DNA from: an uncultured SAR86 cluster bacterium
GTDB taxonomy: Bacteria > Pseudomonadota > Gammaproteobacteria > Magnimaribacterales > D2472
DNA length: 64,000 nucleotides
Assembly (NCBI GenBank): GCA_902528215.1
Contig: CABZRR010000001.1
Location: 14,696 to 78,695 of the forward strand
Direction: 5' to 3'
Every line of letters begins with the position of its first letter. The stretch's first letter is position 1. Positions 37,895 through 48,303 of this stretch are shown in pieces. The position numbers and the translations under genes were made by a program. The notes below the pieces were generated by a model. The model did not search any database and was not told where the DNA came from. It saw only the letters and a list, made by a program, of their open reading frames with translations.

Positions 37895-38875
37895 ATGTCA
37901 AAATACAAAACATATGAATACATCTGGCTTGATGGTTATCAACCAGAGCCGTTCATGAGAAGCAAAGTTAAAGCAACAGATTCGGATACTCCTCCTGATT
38001 GGTCTTTTGACGGCTCATCAACACAACAAGCTGAAGGTGGAAGCTCAGATTGCCTTCTTCTTCCAGTTCAAACTTATGAAAATCCAAATGGCCATGATTT
38101 AGTTATGACCCAAGTTCAAGCAGCTGATCATACTGCTCACCCCTCCAATTTTAGGGCAGCAGCTGCCGAGGTTGTAACAGATGACTGGTGGTTTGGATTT
38201 GAACAGGAATTTTTCTTTACTGACCCTGAAACAGGCGAACCTCTTGGATGGGAAAATGGAGAGCCTAGAGCACAAGGAGAATTTTATTGTGGTGTAGGAG
38301 CCGGAAATGTTGTTGGCAGAGAAATTTCTGATCATCATCTTCAGGCTTGTCTTGATTTAGGAATCACACTTACAGGAACAAATGCAGAAGTTGCTCTCGG
38401 TCAATGGGAATATCAATGTTTTGGTACTGGAATTAAAGCAGCGGATGACCTATGGATTAGTAGATATCTTCTTTACAAAGTTGCAGAAGAGTATGGCGTT
38501 GGTGTAAACATTCATCCAAAACCAAAAACTGGTGATTGGAATGGTTCCGGAATGCACACCAATTTTTCTAACGAAGAAATGAGATCAAAAGGCTCGGAAG
38601 AATTGTTTTCGTCATTGTGCGACAAACTTGGTGAAGTTCATGAAGAAGGAATTGCTGCCTATGGCTCTGACAATGATATGAGATTGACAGGTCTTCATGA
38701 AACTCAAAGCATTGATCAATTCTCATATGGAGTAAGCGATAGAGGAGCTAGTATAAGAATCCCAGTATATACAGTAGAGCATAACTGGAATGGTTATTTA
38801 GAGGATAGAAGGCCTGCTTCAAATGCAGATCCATATAAAATTTTAGCCCACATTGTTGGAACTCTTACTAAATAG
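37895..38875 (+). CDS. glnII: Glutamine synthetase type II
   Basis: 326 aa; EYIWLDG, RSK, WSFDGSSTQQAEG..SD..L.P, WFGFEQE, NAEVA.GQWEYQ, HPKP..GDWNGSGMHTNFS, RLTG.HET, RGASIRIP, YLEDRRPASN.DPY; strong RBS AAGGAG. Confidence 0.93.
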   Translation: MSKYKTYEYIWLDGYQPEPFMRSKVKATDSDTPPDWSFDGSSTQQAEGGSSDCLLLPVQTYENPNGHDLVMTQVQAADHTAHPSNFRAAAAEVVTDDWWFGFEQEFFFTDPETGEPLGWENGEPRAQGEFYCGVGAGNVVGREISDHHLQACLDLGITLTGTNAEVALGQWEYQCFGTGIKAADDLWISRYLLYKVAEEYGVGVNIHPKPKTGDWNGSGMHTNFSNEEMRSKGSEELFSSLCDKLGEVHEEGIAAYGSDNDMRLTGLHETQSIDQFSYGVSDRGASIRIPVYTVEHNWNGYLEDRRPASNADPYKILAHIVGTLTK

Positions 38876-38953: not shown

Positions 38954-40042
38954 ATGAATTTTTCTAATTTTGAAGCATTTGATAATTTAAATACTGAAAT
39001 TATTATCTTAGATGGAAATAATTTTGACTTATTGTGGATGAATGAAGCTGCAAAAGCCGCACATTGGATTGATGATTCATCCAAACTTAGTGGTAAAAAA
39101 ATTTCATCATTACTGGATAATCAAACAAAGCATCAAATTGATCAAATTCTTCAAAAAACAAAAAAGAAATCTGGATCGGTTACAAGAAGAGATTTTGAGG
39201 TTCTTTATCAGTCTGGCAACTCAAGAACAGTTGATCTCACAATATCCTTCTCAGACAAAAAAAATCTTGTATTTATTGAAGCAGTTAATATTGATAACCT
39301 AAATAAAATTATTGATTCTACAAGAAATTTTTCAACTCAAAAAATCGCTGCAGGTTTAGCTAGAACTCTGGCACATGAGGTAAAAAATCCTTTATCGGGT
39401 ATTAAAGGAAGCGCTCAAATTCTAAAATCTAAATACGAAGATGATTTTTCAAAAAAGTTTTTAAAAATCATTGAAGAGGAGACTGATAGGCTTAACGAGA
39501 TTGTTACCAAAATATTAACTCCTGCAAAAAAACCAACTTTTGAATATTTTAATCTCCATGAATCTTTGCAGCGAGTATTAGCATTAAGCACTGCTGAATC
39601 TCAAGAAAATTTAATAATTGAAAGAGACTATGATCCAAGCATCCCCGAAATTTATGGAGATAAAAATTTATTTATTCAAGCCCTTATTAATATAACCCAA
39701 AATGCTATTCATGCCTGTTCAAACTTTGCAGAGGAACCTTGTCTTCAAATTCAAACAAAAGTTGCATACCGACAACCAATCAATGGAACTGTTCACAAAA
39801 CACTAGCTGAAATTATTGTAAGAGATAATGGGCCTGGAGTAAGCTCAGAAATTAAAGATCAAATCTTCTTTCCAATGATATCAGGTAAAGAAAATGGATC
39901 AGGAATTGGCCTTTCAATCTCTCAAGACATTGTAAGGATTCACGGAGGTGCAATATCTTTTGATCGTAAGGATAATCAAACAATATTTTCGATTTTAATA
40001 CCTATTTCTAGCAACAACATTAATGGAGCTAAAAGTGCCTAA
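38954..40042 (+). CDS. ntrB: Nitrogen regulation sensor kinase NtrB
   Basis: LAHEVKNPLSGIKGSAQ, DYDPSIPE, DNGPG, IFFPMISG, GIGLSI. Confidence 0.95.
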   Translation: MNFSNFEAFDNLNTEIIILDGNNFDLLWMNEAAKAAHWIDDSSKLSGKKISSLLDNQTKHQIDQILQKTKKKSGSVTRRDFEVLYQSGNSRTVDLTISFSDKKNLVFIEAVNIDNLNKIIDSTRNFSTQKIAAGLARTLAHEVKNPLSGIKGSAQILKSKYEDDFSKKFLKIIEEETDRLNEIVTKILTPAKKPTFEYFNLHESLQRVLALSTAESQENLIIERDYDPSIPEIYGDKNLFIQALINITQNAIHACSNFAEEPCLQIQTKVAYRQPINGTVHKTLAEIIVRDNGPGVSSEIKDQIFFPMISGKENGSGIGLSISQDIVRIHGGAISFDRKDNQTIFSILIPISSNNINGAKSA

Positions 40043-41411
40043 AATTTGGATAGCCGATGATGATGAAGCTATTCGTATAGTGCTCGAAGAAGGTCTGAAA
40101 AGTGATGGTCTTGAAATAAAGACATTTTCTGACGGCCAATCATTAATAGATAACTTAAATATAGATAAACCAGATCTTATTATTTCAGATATAAAAATGC
40201 CTGGAATGCACGGCTATGATCTTTTAAAGCACATAAAAAATAATTATGAAAAACTACCAGTGATAATTATGACTGCTTTTACAGATATGCAAGCCGCAAT
40301 TGATTCCTACGGAGGTGGTGCTTTCGAATATATTCCTAAACCTTTTGATTTGGAGGAAGCTATTGTTACTGTGCAAAAAGCTCTCGAAGAACATAAAGAA
40401 CCGAAAACAAAAAAAGTTTCTAAATCAGAAATCATTGGTTCGGCACCTTCCATGCAAATTGTTTTTAGATCCATAGGTAAACTTGCAAACACCAACGCTA
40501 CTGTTTTAATACAAGGTGAGTCTGGAACAGGGAAAGAATTAGTTTCTAAATCATTACACAAAAATAGCCCAAGGCATGATATGCCATTCATAGCATTAAA
40601 CATGGCAGATATTCCGAAGGAGCTGATTGAATCAGAATTATTTGGTCATGAAAAAGGAGCTTTTACTGGTGCAGTAGAACAAAGAATAGGTAGGTTTGAG
40701 CAAGCAAATGGTGGGACTCTTTTCCTTGACGAAATTGGAGACATGCCCCTTGAAACTCAAACACGTTTATTAAGAGTCTTATCTAACAAGGAATTTTTTA
40801 GAGTTGGTGGTGACAAGCCCATTAAGGTAGATGTTCGAATCTTAGCGGCAACACATCAAAGTCTAGAATCATTAGTTGCCTCTGGCACATTTAGAGAAGA
40901 TCTCTATTACAGATTAAATGTTATTAGAATTGATGTGCCGCCATTAAGACAAAGAAAAGAAGATATTGGCGACCTATCCTCTGCTTTCTTAAAAAGACAT
41001 GCAGATTCATTAATGGATGATCAAAAAGTACTTTCGAAAGAAGCCCTTCTTGCTTTCAAGCAATATAATTGGCCAGGAAACGTTAGACAATTGGAAAATA
41101 CATGTTATTGGATTGCCCTCATGGCGCCTACTCAAAACGTAAATTTAGAGGATCTACCTGCTGAAATTAAAAATAATGATCTGCCTGCTGAAATTGAAAA
41201 TGGAAATTGGCAATCAGGACTGTCTAATTGGCTTGGTGAGATTTATCAAAGCAACTCAGAGAATATGCTTCAAATTATTGAACCGGAATTGGATAAAGTA
41301 ATCATTGATTTTGCCTTAAAAAAAACAGGTGGAAAAAAACAAGATGCTGCTAAAGTCTTAGGCATTGGTAGAAATACTCTCTCAAAAAAAATAAAGGCTC
41401 AAAAAGCTTAA
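40035..41411 (+). CDS. ntrC: Nitrogen regulator NtrC
   Basis: Receiver domain, GESGTGKE, ESELFGHEKGAFTGA, WPGNVRQLEN, HTH LGIGRNTL; GTG 40035 has GGAG RBS. Confidence 0.96.
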   Translation: MPKIWIADDDEAIRIVLEEGLKSDGLEIKTFSDGQSLIDNLNIDKPDLIISDIKMPGMHGYDLLKHIKNNYEKLPVIIMTAFTDMQAAIDSYGGGAFEYIPKPFDLEEAIVTVQKALEEHKEPKTKKVSKSEIIGSAPSMQIVFRSIGKLANTNATVLIQGESGTGKELVSKSLHKNSPRHDMPFIALNMADIPKELIESELFGHEKGAFTGAVEQRIGRFEQANGGTLFLDEIGDMPLETQTRLLRVLSNKEFFRVGGDKPIKVDVRILAATHQSLESLVASGTFREDLYYRLNVIRIDVPPLRQRKEDIGDLSSAFLKRHADSLMDDQKVLSKEALLAFKQYNWPGNVRQLENTCYWIALMAPTQNVNLEDLPAEIKNNDLPAEIENGNWQSGLSNWLGEIYQSNSENMLQIIEPELDKVIIDFALKKTGGKKQDAAKVLGIGRNTLSKKIKAQKA

Positions 41412-44529: not shown

Positions 44530-45294
44530 CTAACTATTCCACCAAGCTACATCTGAGAAGGCCCTTACATCAATTTCATGTGTCCAAGCAGAACGATGTT
44601 GTTGAGATAAATAGTAGTAGGTATCTGCAACGCTTGAAGGCAGAATCAAGCCGTCATGTTCCATTCCCTTTGTTTCACGCAGTTGTTGAAATAATTCTTC
44701 ACCAAGCATTTTTCCCAATGTATCAGGAGCATCCACCATGCCATCAACGACAATATGTACTATGTGAATTCCCTTTGGTGCAAATTCTGCATTTAAAGTT
44801 TGACATAACAACCTTCTTCCACCCATGGCCGCAGCATGAGAGTGCTGATTTTTATTGCCTCTCATTGCTGCTGTTGCTGAAGTTACAAGAAATGTTCCCG
44901 CATTCCTATCTTCCATGATTGGCATTAAAACTTTTGCTACCCTAAATAGCCCAAGATCTGCCATTCTCCAACCCCATTCGAACTCTTTTAAAGACGTTTC
45001 GTTTAGTAACTTCATTCCTGTTTGAGCACCAAGATTGTAGACAAGGACATCAATAGGACCAATGTCTTGTTCAATCTTTAAAATTAATTCTTCTAAGACA
45101 TTATCTTCAATTGCATTAATTAAATAGCCTGTTGCTGATCCACCTTCCTGTTTTATGTCAGAAACAAGTTGATCTAATCCTTTTTGATCAGATCTTCTGC
45201 ACAAACATGAATGGTAGCCTTCTTTGGCAAATTTCTTTGCAACGGTCCCACCAATGCCTGCGCCTGCTCCTAAAACTAAACATACTGGTTTCAT
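44530..45294 (-). CDS. SDR family oxidoreductase
   Basis: GAGAGIG, VYNLGA, TSATA..RG, GIH..H.VVDG.V, Q.RSAWT.E.D.R. Confidence 0.88.
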   Translation of the reverse strand: MKPVCLVLGAGAGIGGTVAKKFAKEGYHSCLCRRSDQKGLDQLVSDIKQEGGSATGYLINAIEDNVLEELILKIEQDIGPIDVLVYNLGAQTGMKLLNETSLKEFEWGWRMADLGLFRVAKVLMPIMEDRNAGTFLVTSATAAMRGNKNQHSHAAAMGGRRLLCQTLNAEFAPKGIHIVHIVVDGMVDAPDTLGKMLGEELFQQLRETKGMEHDGLILPSSVADTYYYLSQQHRSAWTHEIDVRAFSDVAWWNS

Positions 45295-45393
45295 GATTCC
45301 TAATTTAACTTTTTATTTTTAATATTCAAAGCAGAGATTAAATATTTGCGTTTTTCTGATTATTTAAAAAAAATGAAAATTTATTCATTAAAT

Positions 45394-45424
45394 AAAAAAG
45401 GAAGGTAATAACCTTCCTTTTTTT
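45394..45424 (-). terminator. Intrinsic terminator after the DUF4278-like peptide gene
   Basis: AAAAAAGGAAGGT-AATA-ACCTTCCTTTTTTT, perfect stem with A/T tails on both sides. Confidence 0.88.
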
Positions 45425-45438
45425 AACTTAAATATAAG

Positions 45439-45609
45439 TTATGCTGACCAGCTTACACCGCGATAAATACCGCTTGATGGTTTAGCTGACTTGCTTAGTT
45501 TTAAAGCATTATATTTAGCACCTCTATAATTCAATACTTTATCAACAGCTGAGCTGTGATTAGTATTGTTTTGGCGAGTTACTTTAATGCCTCTGTAGTA
45601 CGAAGTCAT
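45439..45609 (-). CDS. DUF4278-like small basic protein (56 aa, three YRG repeats)
   Basis: ATG 45609 with GGAGG RBS at 45615-45619; MTSYYRGIK...LNYRGAKY...IYRGVSW; own terminator; riboswitch leader. Confidence 0.8.
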   Translation of the reverse strand: MTSYYRGIKVTRQNNTNHSSAVDKVLNYRGAKYNALKLSKSAKPSSGIYRGVSWSA

Positions 45610-45670
45610 ATTAGCCTCCAGTTTTCGTCGATTAAAATAATATATCTTTCGATATACACCAATTAACAAC

Positions 45671-45718
45671 GCGTTCCTTCAGTATCATTACCTACTTCCG
45701 TCTCTTTCGAGATGAACG
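45671..45718 (-). ncRNA. Glutamine riboswitch (glnA motif), aptamer 2
   Basis: CGUUC-A-UCUC(GAAA)GAGA-CGGAAGUA-GGUA(AUGA)UACU-GAAG-GAACG: three-way junction with AGUA/GAA E-loop. Confidence 0.85.
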
Positions 45719-45723
45719 ATAAT

Positions 45724-45779
45724 GCGTTCCTTCGTCTTGCGACTACTTCCGTCCTAATTTGAACAAACTAGGATGAACG
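45724..45779 (-). ncRNA. Glutamine riboswitch (glnA motif), aptamer 1
   Basis: CGUUC-A-UCCUAGUUUGUUCAAAUUAGGA-CGGAAGUA-GUC(GCAA)GAC-GAAG-GAACG: same core as aptamer 2 with different P2/P3 stems. Confidence 0.85.
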
Positions 45780-45787
45780 AAATACAT

Positions 45788-45816
45788 ATATTAAATAATT
45801 TTAAAAAAAATTACAA
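45788..45816 (-). promoter_or_regulatory. Possible sigma70 promoter for the riboswitch leader
   Basis: TTGTAA-17 nt-TAATAT ending about 8 nt before aptamer 1; AT-rich context weakens this. Confidence 0.4.
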
Positions 45817-45864: not shown

Positions 45865-48207
45865 CTAATATGAAAGCTTATAGGGATATCCGTGAAAAAC
45901 TATCTGATTAATTCCTGCTGCAAATGCATTGCCAGCCAACCTTTCATAATCTTCAATCTTCAGCCTATTATAATTAAAGTCTATTTTGATAAATGACTCT
46001 GAACTAACAATCTTTTTATTTGCAATATTTCCAGCTGAGGATGCTAATTTTAAGAAATCAAAACTTCCTCCTGCAAAAAGACCTTCACTTTCAGGAATAT
46101 CGGCAACGGCATATGCATCCAAATAATTACCATATCCTCCATGCGCTTGAAGCCTTAACTTAATATTTAAAGAGTTAGTCCAGTTTTTTATTGGTAGGAG
46201 AAACTCAGTCATAAAAAGCTTTTCTCTTGTATGCAGATAATCCTCATATACCCTCTCTCTAAGGTTATATTCTGACTGATATAAAAATTCTTCACCGAAT
46301 ATTGCATACAGGTACTTCGATTCTCCATTCTTTTTAAAAATTAAAGGCAGGTATGGACCAATACTATAGCCATGCATCTCCTCAAAGGTTTTAAAAAACT
46401 CTTTTGACCAGGGTAGCTCGCCAATTAGCTCAAAACTATCAATAAAAAAATTTCTTGGCTTATAAGGTTTTATTTTTTCTATCCAATTATTTCCAAGCTT
46501 CTTGATATACTCCTCAACACCTCCTTTATTTAAATGATCTAACACTAAAGATTCATCCCATGCTCCTTTATATGCAGAACCCAGCGTATTATGAGAAACA
46601 TTATTCTGATATATAAAAAACAATTTGTATTTCCCTGCAGGGACATCTAATTTCAATCCATCTTCATTCAAGGAATGGCTTACATCTAGAAACTCAGTCA
46701 AAATGTCTTTTTTTTGTGATTGTTTAACTTTTGCCAGAGTAACTTTCATTAAATCAATATCTTGATCAAACTTACCTATTGTTTTATTTACAATGAAATT
46801 TGTTTTATTTATATAAGAGGGCTCTTGAATTTTAGGAGGTTTAATTGTTCCGTTTACAGGCCCGATGATCTCTAACTCAGATTTTATTAGTTGCTTTGAG
46901 GGAAAATCTTTAATGAATGGGCCTCCGCTCGACCAACCACTTCCAAGAGTAAGATCTACATTCAATTTTAAAGCATTAGCCTGTGAAAATAGATATTTAA
47001 GATTATCAAAAAAGGGTTGTTCTCCCACTTGAAAGATTTCATTTTTATTTTGCATTAAATATTTTTTTGGCATTCCAATTGTCAATGTTTGTAGCTCAAT
47101 CGAAGAAAACTTAGCTTTTTTAAATTTCTTCAGCTCTGTTTGAATCTGAGCTTTTTCTACTGCATTTCCAGGCCACCACCATCTTAAAATTGGAAAGTAT
47201 CTATCATCTGGATTAATCCACTCATTAGCTTGAAAACAATTCTTATTATTTGAATCTGTTCTTTGGCTAAGAATTAATATTTTTGCTTTGCCTGCTCCTA
47301 TTGACATTGTTATATTTTCAAATGAATTTAGGTTAGAAAATTCATCTATGCTTCCGTCAAAAGGATCAAGAACCTTTATGTCCTTAAATGATTTATTTAA
47401 GTAAAAATTTTTTTTCTGTGCCTCATAAGAATCATTATAAAAATAAATAATTTTATGTGAGCCACATGACCTAGTGGCAGATCTAAAGTAATTTTTGTCT
47501 TTATCTAATAAAGTTATAAATGGATCAATATTTAGATCCTTTAAAGTATTAGCCAGTTCTTGGATATCATTGAGTTGAAACACGAGTTTAGAAATCTTTT
47601 CTACATATCTAACGATTTCTGCATCTCTAATTTTAAAATTAGAAAGTCCAGTTGCGCGTTGCGGAAAATCACCTATGAATATTACTTTCAGCCCTGCATC
47701 TGCAAGGGCTAGAATCTTTCTCAAAATGCTTGGAGATGTATGCTCTAAATTAGTCACAAGCAAAGCTTGATATGAGCCATTTCCAATATTTAATTTATTC
47801 CCAGAAATATTTGACGACAAAAGATTCTTCTTACTTATCCTGTCATAGGTATAACCATTTAAATTAATATGTTTACTAATTTCAGACTCTTGATAATTTG
47901 AATTTAGTCTTCGAAACTGAAAATTCGGTTCATCTGGCCATGCTCCATCTTGAAGAAACCATGCAATATTTACTTCAGGTGCTCCTAGCTGCATAACGTA
48001 CGACATCCTGGCAAAGCTTGTATTTAACTCGTTTATATTTTGCCAAATGCTTATTTGATTTAAATTGCTTGTTAAAGCGATTGGGCCTGCTGTATAGGTT
48101 TGACCAAAGAATGAGTTAGGAAAAGGATACCAATTTTTATCCTCTGAGCTACAGCTGATAAATAAGATAAGTGAAATACAGAACGAAATTTTTTTTAATT
48201 TATCCAA
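45865..48207 (-). CDS. GH106 (alpha-L-rhamnosidase-like) glycoside hydrolase lipoprotein, apparently circularly permuted
   Basis: Lipobox FISC; RWWWPGN, DLTLGSGWSSGGP, LDH, IDSFE, QAHG, DIPESE, ASSAGN...K.IVSSESF, GINQIVFHG.PY. Confidence 0.8.
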   Translation of the reverse strand: MDKLKKISFCISLILFISCSSEDKNWYPFPNSFFGQTYTAGPIALTSNLNQISIWQNINELNTSFARMSYVMQLGAPEVNIAWFLQDGAWPDEPNFQFRRLNSNYQESEISKHINLNGYTYDRISKKNLLSSNISGNKLNIGNGSYQALLVTNLEHTSPSILRKILALADAGLKVIFIGDFPQRATGLSNFKIRDAEIVRYVEKISKLVFQLNDIQELANTLKDLNIDPFITLLDKDKNYFRSATRSCGSHKIIYFYNDSYEAQKKNFYLNKSFKDIKVLDPFDGSIDEFSNLNSFENITMSIGAGKAKILILSQRTDSNNKNCFQANEWINPDDRYFPILRWWWPGNAVEKAQIQTELKKFKKAKFSSIELQTLTIGMPKKYLMQNKNEIFQVGEQPFFDNLKYLFSQANALKLNVDLTLGSGWSSGGPFIKDFPSKQLIKSELEIIGPVNGTIKPPKIQEPSYINKTNFIVNKTIGKFDQDIDLMKVTLAKVKQSQKKDILTEFLDVSHSLNEDGLKLDVPAGKYKLFFIYQNNVSHNTLGSAYKGAWDESLVLDHLNKGGVEEYIKKLGNNWIEKIKPYKPRNFFIDSFELIGELPWSKEFFKTFEEMHGYSIGPYLPLIFKKNGESKYLYAIFGEEFLYQSEYNLRERVYEDYLHTREKLFMTEFLLPIKNWTNSLNIKLRLQAHGGYGNYLDAYAVADIPESEGLFAGGSFDFLKLASSAGNIANKKIVSSESFIKIDFNYNRLKIEDYERLAGNAFAAGINQIVFHGYPYKLSY

Positions 48208-48227
48208 GTTATGAATATCTTATAACA

Positions 48228-48303
48228 TGGTGCCCAGAGGTGGAATCGAACCACCGACACAAGGATTTTCAGTCCTTTGCTCTACCGACTGAGCTATCTG
48301 GGC
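48228..48303 (-). tRNA. tRNA-Phe (GAA)
   Basis: GCCCAGATAGCTCAGTCGGTAGAGC...CTGAAAA...GGTTCGATTCC...TGGGCACCA; 76 nt, encoded CCA. Confidence 0.98.

Follow-up and report, generated by a model that had tools for sequence, protein, structure and literature searches.

A tandem pair of glutamine riboswitch aptamers precedes the gene for a 56-amino acid (aa) microprotein of the DUF4278 family on the minus strand of a 64,000-nucleotide (nt) stretch of DNA from an uncultured SAR86 cluster bacterium (GenBank assembly GCA_902528215.1, contig CABZRR010000001.1, positions 14,696 to 78,695), referred to here as the window. The aptamers and the gene form a stand-alone cassette that also holds a platform helix, a GGAGG Shine-Dalgarno (SD) sequence, a strong terminator and, as we infer, a promoter. 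We read it as a nitrogen-status cassette in which glutamine switches translation on and the tandem arrangement steepens the response, and put the probability of this reading at roughly 0.6. Because any Rfam-based pipeline would annotate the feature correctly, the riboswitch is not a discovery of a new kind. It is the DUF4278 target gene that is unusual and not the riboswitch, which is ordinary in these marine heterotrophs.

The features of the cassette, in the order of the minus strand, are:

45788..45816 (-): putative sigma-70-type promoter, read by eye; TTGTAA (45816-45811), 17-nt spacer, TAATAT (45793-45788)
45721..45781 (-): glutamine aptamer 1 (RF01739); 62.4 bits, E 2.1e-11, model positions 1-53 of 53
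45719..45724 (-): 6-nt linker CAUUAU between the P1 helices, C45724 to U45719
45668..45720 (-): glutamine aptamer 2 (RF01739); 59.9 bits, E 1e-10, model positions 1-53 of 53
45626..45671 (-): expression-platform helix; C45671 and GUUGUUAA pair with UUAA-U-CGACG (45635-45626)
45615..45619 (-): SD sequence GGAGG, 5 nt 5′ of AUG
45439..45609 (-): 56-aa open reading frame (ORF), stop included, Pfam DUF4278; YRG motifs at residues 5-7, 28-30 and 49-51
45388..45423 (-): intrinsic terminator; 13-bp stem (AAAAAAAGGAAGG / CCUUCCUUUUUU side) followed by a U-rich tail

Two well-formed glutamine aptamers

The whole window was scanned with cmscan against the 4227 families of Rfam 15, in which RF01739, the glutamine riboswitch aptamer or glnA leader, has a gathering score of 35. 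Three matches reached gathering level: one tRNA and two abutting copies of RF01739, each spanning the full model. An earlier note, made from the letters alone, had proposed tandem glnA aptamers here and predicted two matches in an Infernal search with the Rfam model; exactly two were obtained, well above the cut-off. The span of 45671..45779 that it gave for the pair holds as well, since the first CGUUC begins at 45779 and the last GAAGGAACGC finishes at 45671. The pair is thus confirmed as a correctly recognised, well-formed tandem glutamine riboswitch. These are the only RF01739 matches in the 1.18-Mb assembly, which comprises 30 contigs and is 81% complete.

Both units form the three-stem junction of the family, with the cores CGUUCA, ACGGAAGUA and GAAGGAACGC exact in each. 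P1 consists of the same five base pairs, CGUUC/GAACG, in unit 1 and unit 2. The other stems are individual: the P2 of unit 1 is 9 bp long and capped by a GUUC loop, that of unit 2 has 4 bp (UCUC/GAGA) and a GAAA loop, and P3 is GUC-GCAA-GAC in the former and GGU-AAUGAU-ACU in the latter, each of 3 bp. These helices bear out what the note had noticed, namely that P2 and P3 differ in sequence and length and still pair, and on the minus strand CGUUCAUC, GACGGAAGUAG and GAAGGAACGC are indeed shared exactly. Among close relatives, the P3 loop of aptamer 1 varies between GCAA, GUAA and GAAA, all of the form G-N-A-A, on a constant stem.

The arrangement is a tandem in the full sense: two complete aptamers joined by a 6-nt linker, with no terminator or ORF between them and with a single platform, SD and ORF behind them. 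The 5-nt spacing described earlier corresponds to AUUAU, which lies between GAAGGAACGC of unit 1 and CGUUC of unit 2. A distance of 58 nt separates aptamer 2 from the single ORF preceded by GGAGG. That glnA RNAs occur in tandem, as the note stated, and that they are of marine origin has been in print since 2010 (Weinberg 2010; PMC2864571).

The expression platform and a proposed mechanism

The platform helix begins at C45671, directly after aptamer 2, and encloses an inner hairpin, GUAUAUC-GAAA-GAUAUAU (45657-45640); AAAAC-U-GGAGG follows directly after the helix. The platform folds at -12.2 kcal/mol (z -2.75), with 3 of 200 shuffled sequences folding equally well, and the fold of the whole leader (z -0.94) is indistinguishable from shuffles. 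Its conservation is seen in an alignment of six homologous leaders from two families of the order, where the inner hairpin carries compensatory changes at five pairs, CGUU...AACG-AAAACUGGAGG is conserved and CUGGAGG is invariant. In the window and five homologous leaders the helix begins at the same C and ends 4-5 nt before CUGGAGG. Other relatives also build a helix from this C, either as C-AUAGG...CCUAUG directly before AAAACUGGAGG or as C-AUUUCUUU pairing with AAAGGAGAAGUG across the SD. This common helix design at the C supports a translational switch that opens on binding.

Published work on gifB provides the model for such a switch. Klahn 2018 (PMC6212724), following Ren 2015, proposed that ligand binding engages the C next to P1 in a long-range pair and so melts a helix that blocks the ribosome-binding site. 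The same source shows how the gifB aptamer of Synechocystis raises the synthesis of IF17, a DUF4278-bearing protein, with glutamine. Tandem glnA RNAs have in addition been tied to more digital control (Weinberg 2010; PMC2864571).

The mechanism proposed for the window is as follows. A constitutive-looking promoter would start an mRNA that begins with ~115 nt of two type-1 glutamine aptamers, both feeding one expression platform and one target, the 56-aa DUF4278 microprotein. At low glutamine, the C after the 3′ strand of the aptamer 2 P1 would form a helix together with its 3′ neighbours, ending 4-5 nt before CUGGAGG and closing off an A-rich landing zone. With glutamine bound, that C would be drawn into the aptamer core, the helix would open and the ribosome could load. 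The upstream aptamer would steepen the response, perhaps by adding a second site to fill or through release of the linker CAUUAUC from the P3 of aptamer 2. The microprotein would then be produced when nitrogen is plentiful. In thermodynamic modelling with the aptamer fold enforced, positions -20 to +10 became more open in 6/6 leaders, with a gain in mean unpaired probability of only 0.05-0.13 and without a clear switch.

The same hairpin might be thought to act on transcription. Followed as it is in the window by a U-rich stretch, UAUUUUAAU, GUAUAUC-GAAA-GAUAUAU could serve as a weak intrinsic terminator that depends on the state of the aptamers. Such attenuation is distinctly unlikely, given that homologues do not share the U-rich tail (their corresponding hairpin is followed by GUUAAUCG or GUACGAAAUCG), that the stem is AU-rich and only 7 bp long, that a terminator scan did not call it, and that RNA contigs continue through the hairpin into the ORF.

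From the putative promoter, transcription would begin at about 45781, where aptamer 1 has its 5′ edge, and a -35/-10-like pair lies at an equal distance from the aptamer in four homologous leaders (L105, L144, L148 and L150). A consensus promoter scan picked another, weak site, TCTACA-16-TAAAAT at 45825-45798, and the number of sites it found was no higher than in shuffles. Upstream of the cassette no NtrC or sigma-54 site was seen by eye, no formal scan having been run, and no NtcA-like box was seen at the cassette. At the other end, the terminator folds at -19.8 kcal/mol (z -5.5) and none of 200 shuffles folds equally well; the promoter/terminator pattern scan did not list it.

The linker and the origin of the tandem

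The first C of the linker occupies the position given as the long-range pairing partner on glutamine binding (Klahn 2018, citing Ren 2015; PMC6212724). The sequence CAUUAUC is present in 8/9 short-linker tandem loci, representing 5/6 distinct leader types, and is complementary over 7 bp to GGUAAUG in the P3 of aptamer 2. A relay from aptamer 1 to aptamer 2 through this pairing is possible but unproven.

Across the tandem leaders of different genes, P3 is specific to the unit: most first units have GUC-loop-GAC and most second units GGUAAUG...ACC. Because each position retains its own type of P3 before different genes, the comparison argues for one old two-aptamer module rather than a recent duplication.

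The DUF4278 microprotein

The ORF behind the tandem belongs to DUF4278 (PF14105), which it matches with 30.1 bits against a cut-off of 25.3, residues 2-54 aligning with positions 1-56 of the 57-position profile. No NCBIfam model matches it. A family profile built from eight members found 349 clusters at E<=0.001 in a collection of 5.8 billion proteins, nearly all from marine assemblies and none with a functional name. All three YRG motifs stay unchanged across an alignment of 39 family members. By our own count, the window ORF and the copy in the sister genome G005 differ by three synonymous changes and one conservative change. An AlphaFold2 model shows three beta-hairpins centred on the YRG motifs at low confidence (pLDDT 66, pTM 0.22), and a search of PDB sequences with the family profile gave no match at E<=10.

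The leading guess for the target of the microprotein is glutamine synthetase (GS), here of the GlnII type. The hints to its function are circumstantial: control by glutamine, a host in which GlnII was found and GlnE was not, carriage by phages, and apparent exchange with another riboswitch-led microprotein in sister species. Phages often target central host enzymes. Prediction of a complex between two GlnII chains and the microprotein scored 0.00 against a mark of 0.32, a result that counts neither way for binding.

RNA evidence comes from contigs of marine metatranscriptome libraries of two studies, in which uncovered parts carry no meaning. Contigs from these libraries cover the leader and the ORF. 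One, from run X10, spans 45588-45738 with a single difference. Another, from run X3, spans 45074-45705 with 25 differences and is therefore ascribed to a related strain. In both runs the cassette contigs had a much higher word depth than contigs on the genes next to the cassette; depth of contigs measures expression poorly, and these data give a weak hint that the cassette is transcribed. Contigs from runs X1 and X2 were rejected as window transcripts and assigned to other organisms, because they matched only ~35 nt on the aptamer core and their flanks were unlike the window.

The sign of the regulation and points against the reading

Glutamine might also act in the opposite direction, its binding stabilising a structure that hinders initiation so that the microprotein is made in nitrogen shortage. 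In the ligand-free model nothing visibly sequesters the SD, and within the order the aptamer also precedes GS and porin-like genes. Klahn 2018 (PMC6212724) calls negative regulation of GS by glutamine reasonable, with its sign unknown. Because the aptamer stands before GS and porin-like genes and negative control of GS is reasonable, both signs probably exist in this riboswitch family. For the DUF4278 leader the opposite sign is nevertheless unlikely. The only DUF4278 leaders that the source reports as tested, those of Synechocystis gifB and Prochlorococcus MED4, were turned on by nitrogen sufficiency (PMC6212724), and the small genes associated with these RNAs are repressed by nitrogen starvation (Weinberg 2010; PMC2864571). 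Enforced aptamer folding, moreover, slightly opens positions -20 to +10 in 6/6 leaders.

Several observations weigh against a glutamine-ON switch acting through a microprotein inhibitor of GS. In the platform, no conserved pairing covers the SD itself in the six leaders of the window type, and the CGUU:AACG pairing consists of invariant letters in all six, which gives no proof by covariation. For GGAGG alone, enforcing the aptamer fold increased openness in 4/6 leaders and decreased it in 2/6, the effect being small. Because the modelled change in accessibility is small, and inconsistent for GGAGG, the sign of regulation rests on analogy. The letters of CAUUAUC:GGUAAUG are likewise invariant, hence without covariation proof; the only linker variant, in L016, keeps 5/7 pairs with one compensatory change, and a P3 similar to that of aptamer 2 (AGUAAUGAUACU) also occurs in single aptamers of the genus. 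The RNA evidence consists of contigs and not reads, has no visible 5′ end and comes from libraries in which DNA is possible, and the X3 contig crosses the terminator into the next gene. As for the target, the protein stops at residue 56, directly after the third YRG, and has no counterpart of the IF7-like C-terminal region of IF17 (GifB), which is described as crucial for the interaction with GS (PMC6212724). The GS in the window is of type II, not the type I that IF17 inhibits. Finally, the window genome (G000) is 81% complete, and the statement that it has no GlnE and no type I GS (GSI) means that they were not found, not that they are absent.

Nitrogen genes of the host

The genome of the host is AT-rich and measures ~1.2 Mb. 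The window contains a set of nitrogen genes ~7 kb from the cassette, which are context and not part of it:

37895-38875 (+): GlnII-type GS, 326 aa; NF041605, E 5.5e-105, 351 bits, below the 500-bit cut-off
38954-40042 (+): ntrB; 231.7 bits against a cut-off of 240
40023-41411 (+): ntrC; TIGR01818, 639 bits, above the cut-off

The closest solved relatives of the window GS are chains of decameric type-II enzymes (4bax, 3fky and 2d3a). The glnA slot of the glnA-ntrB-ntrC operon is thus occupied by a GlnII-type, eukaryote-like GS. Nitrogen genes were surveyed in five genomes: G000, two genus members (78% and 92% complete) and two members of the order. GlnE was found in none of the five, a PII match in four, and a match of GlnD size in three, G000 not among them. 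In the three genomes of the genus (G000, G005 and G010), no GS-family match other than GlnII was found. All these misses concern incomplete genomes.

The gammaproteobacterial context, which the earlier note had called clear, is supported indirectly, by mutY adjoining an Fe(2+)-trafficking (YggX-type) gene and by glnA(GlnII)-ntrB-ntrC in the window. In Gammaproteobacteria, both the mutY/YggX-type and the glnA-ntrB-ntrC arrangements are typical. Leaders of the same types occur in named public records whose titles read 'Gammaproteobacteria bacterium' or, in one case, 'Porticoccaceae bacterium'. The size of the genome, its AT-richness and the marine origin of the metatranscriptomes that contain it are in keeping with a SAR86-like lineage.

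Relatives of the cassette in bacteria and phages

DUF4278 was found in 10/266 genomes of the order at E<=0.01, seven of them above the cut-off. The combination of a tandem leader and DUF4278 occurs in G000, G005 and G111 (L152), on a metagenome contig (L142) and in a named record (L105), which is titled Porticoccaceae bacterium and encodes a microprotein copy of 52% identity. Most of the differences seen in the G005, G111 and L142 copies fall in loops or are synonymous. In five further genomes (G133, G042, G081, G029 and G061) a single RF01739 match of 135-154 nt is found, its P3 carrying an insert of 75-95 nt, and two with weak DUF4278 matches (G213 and G038) have no aptamer at gathering level. 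A metagenome scan for tandem leaders gave at least 601 pattern matches; among the matches listed, two relatives were confirmed, one of them without upstream DNA.

Within the genus, the cassette appears to have a counterpart, a gene for a 71-aa protein that also stands behind a glutamine aptamer. The three genomes with tandem and DUF4278 gave no match to the 71-aa gene, and G010 and G003 have the 71-aa gene and no DUF4278. The two genes look like alternative cassettes, in a sample of few genomes that are all kin.

Another group of relatives is viral. DUF4278 relatives are encoded on 50 IMG/VR contigs, 47 of which carry one aptamer with a core 2 to core 3 distance of 71-109 nt and therefore a long P3. 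Of the remaining three, one lacks upstream DNA, another carries no aptamer and in the third the 5′ core is degenerate; tandem aptamers were found on none of the 50. In eight contigs scanned for ORFs, the flanking genes include major head protein, tail tube, a gp32-type single-stranded DNA-binding protein (SSB), UvsY, the small subunit of ribonucleotide reductase (RNR) and S21. Judged by their gene content, the scanned contigs are uncultured T4-like marine phages. The cassette lies between major head and tail tube, or after gp32-type SSB/RNR genes (L203, L208, L186, L194, L168, L170 and L185), and ribosomal protein S21 is encoded on one of these phage contigs. Searches of GenBank phages with the window protein, a viral homologue and the leader DNA of that homologue gave no match, so the phage copies are known only from IMG/VR contigs.

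The long P3 of these relatives encloses a conserved module of 60-95 nt made up of an outer stem, GAAAACCUC, a hairpin, AGC(U)AAGUA, a second hairpin, GAAC(A)GAGACCGA and the outer stem again. It is found in the loci L144:1722-1875(-), L148:1304-1440(+), L150:1712-1850(-) and L151:1308-1442(+) and at the 47 IMG/VR loci among L159-L208. An alignment of 24 distinct sequences shows compensatory changes at 10/20 predicted pairs of the aligned aptamer, six of them within the insert, and both module hairpins covary. The insert matches no Rfam family, and searched alone at E<=10 it gave two chance-level matches. The invariant CCUC of the module could pair with the invariant GGAGG of the platform. No description of the module was found in the literature searched, Ames and Breaker 2011 lying outside that search.

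The locus as a variable island

Two further features mark the chromosomal position of the cassette:

48228-48303 (-): tRNA-Phe, beside the variable segment that holds the cassette
within 45865-48303 (-): GH106-like (alpha-L-rhamnosidase family) gene, 780 aa, between tRNA-Phe and the cassette

Together with the GH106-like gene, the cassette is flanked by tRNA-Phe on one side and by an SDR gene on the other. Three sister genomes (G006, G010 and G003) share the SDR gene, but the DNA upstream of it is unrelated to the window. Because the tRNA-SDR segment is not present upstream of the SDR gene in these genomes, the region is considered variable; by this comparison it is an island adjoining a tRNA gene.

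Such a position invites the view that the cassette is a phage-derived moron, transferred next to tRNA-Phe and merely tolerated, with no regulatory role in the host. The insertion of cassette and GH106-like gene between tRNA-Phe and SDR fits, as do the different gene that lies 6 nt from the SDR start in G010, the lack of window similarity upstream of the SDR gene in G006, G010 and G003, the restriction of DUF4278 to 10/266 order genomes and the occurrence of relatives between head and tail genes of T4-like viral contigs. Such a tolerated moron is still very improbable. Every letter of the aptamer cores is intact, as are platform, SD and all three YRG motifs, the G005, G111 and L142 copies vary mostly in loops and at synonymous positions, and RNA-library contigs cover the cassette. 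Within the genus it occurs only in the three genomes in which the other riboswitch-led microprotein gene was not found, which looks like substitution and not junk.

Glutamine riboswitches in the order and beyond

The earlier note placed the motif mainly in cyanobacteria and marine metagenomes. The rarity outside cyanobacteria that this implied was overstated. RF01739 is present in 25/41 genomes from the genus and order (14/24 in family f1, 1/6 in f2, 4/5 in f3 and 5/5 in f4), with six tandem pairs in five of the 41 genomes; because of this frequency, the riboswitch outside cyanobacteria is real and not rare. Species-representative genomes gave at least 114 pattern matches, and among the matches listed ~32 are proteobacterial by title (own count). 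Their titles name Gammaproteobacteria, Alphaproteobacteria, Pelagibacteraceae, SAR116 and Rhodobacterales, the rest of the matches listed being cyanobacterial or unnamed. Among these, alphaproteobacterial-titled records (including Pelagibacteraceae and SAR116) have the aptamer before ammonium-transporter-like and GS-like genes, among others.

Target genes were taken as the first ORF with an ATG start downstream of the aptamer and were mostly named by reading N-terminal sequences; Pfam supports only the 71-aa protein (DUF4177, below the cut-off) and the porin-like protein (Gcw_chp). On this footing, tandem aptamers in the order stand before GlnII (24-nt linker), GSI (in G027) and small basic peptides, and further targets are gltB, gltD and a porin-like protein of the Gcw_chp type. 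Immediately 3′ of one tandem pair of G027 there is a Gln-synt_C match.

Small proteins recur among the targets. In the genus, a single aptamer precedes the conserved 71-aa, DUF4177-like protein (22.8 bits against a cut-off of 25), at L010:1502-1795 and at 11 other genus loci (L009, L013-L015, L017-L021). The same two-aptamer module as in the window stands before basic peptides of 36-54 aa without a confident family match at L016, L046, L069 and L084, which are tandem leaders of order relatives and of named Gammaproteobacteria metagenome-assembled genomes (MAGs). Several of these peptides end in (F/P)YY(L/P). In L016 and L069, CAUCU directly after the aptamer is complementary to AGAUG of the ribosome-binding region GGAGAUG. 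At eleven cyanobacterial loci (L024, L036, L045, L071, L074, L077, L093, L099, L100, L111 and L133) the first ORF encodes ~50 aa, and the ~50-aa proteins that follow cyanobacterial glnA-type aptamers share a ...QxRxLMxxxRxKQQNRQxSML... motif. We take these proteins to resemble IF7 (GifA) rather than DUF4278.

In print, RF01739 in heterotroph-related genomes is touched on only briefly. A 2025 study mentions the glutamine riboswitch RF01739 in SAR86 and Pelagibacter MAGs (PMC12379486), and a 2022 paper and its preprint report RF01739 in phages of marine heterotrophs (PMC9004378). Beyond these two sources, the literature searched held nothing further on RF01739 in heterotroph-related genomes, and DUF4278 appeared there in cyanobacterial papers only. 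One supplement file of Klahn 2018 contains no entry for SAR86, Pelagibacter, proteobacteria or tandem; the RefSeq and metagenome hit tables of that supplement could list non-cyanobacterial hits.

Comparison with known systems

The closest known counterpart is the gifB (IF17) leader of Synechocystis sp. PCC 6803, which likewise has an RF01739 aptamer, a DUF4278 gene downstream and a helix starting from the C after P1 (PMC6212724). Control is proposed to act at translation and to be ON with glutamine, for gifB in that source and for the window here. The window has two aptamers, however, whereas gifB has one, and its 56-aa protein consists of the DUF4278 part only, without the IF7-like C-terminus. 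Its host is a heterotroph resembling Gammaproteobacteria, with GlnII and NtrBC/PII, in contrast to the NtcA and GSI of the gifB host, and the SD is not directly paired in the window platform. Prochlorococcus yfr6-type leaders resemble the window in having a short, DUF4278-only protein without a GS-binding tail behind a glutamine aptamer (PMC6212724; PMC2864571). In those leaders the aptamer is of the Downstream-peptide type (glutamine-II, RF01704) and the host is a cyanobacterium.

Another point of reference is the set of tandem glnA RNAs from marine metagenomes, in which aptamers of the same family lie head to tail with links to nitrogen genes (Weinberg 2010; PMC2864571). These are unassigned metagenome reads, whereas for the window unit the genome, the neighbouring genes and the target gene are known, and the module is conserved across several targets. 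Ames and Breaker reportedly described tandem glnA RNAs from marine metagenomes as well, in 2011.

The tandem glycine riboswitch also consists of two aptamers with a short linker and one platform; contacts between its aptamers are documented and a steeper response is expected. It has a different fold and ligand, and the linker-P3 pairing of the window is a sequence observation only. We know of no inter-aptamer contacts in glutamine aptamers comparable to those of the glycine riboswitch.

Significance

The interest of the cassette, in our judgement moderate, lies in its target microprotein, in the spread of this protein among heterotrophs and T4-like phages, and in the undescribed P3 module of its relatives. 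A wider proposal, which we advance tentatively and regard as doubtful, is that the microprotein with three YRG motifs is a portable, glutamine-induced effector of nitrogen status common to streamlined marine heterotrophs and T4-like phages, acting on a conserved host target such as GS. Its leaders would have gained a second RNA element, either as a second aptamer or as the P3 module.

By this analysis, the 'marine' glutamine riboswitches reside in the genomes of an order of Gammaproteobacteria, presumably SAR86-like, and in records titled Alphaproteobacteria, Pelagibacteraceae and SAR116. It also makes a regulon of the order concrete, with GSI, GlnII, GOGAT subunits, a porin-like protein and three kinds of microprotein. 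Two questions are opened to short synthetic constructs, namely cooperativity of the tandem and the role of a DUF4278-only peptide beside a type-II GS for which no adenylylation enzyme was found. A DUF4278 peptide related to IF17 occurs beyond cyanobacteria and in T4-type phages, and the carriage of this target protein by ocean phages hints at a nitrogen signal outside cyanobacteria. If the wider proposal is true, small inhibitory proteins would control nitrogen assimilation in other bacteria besides cyanobacteria.

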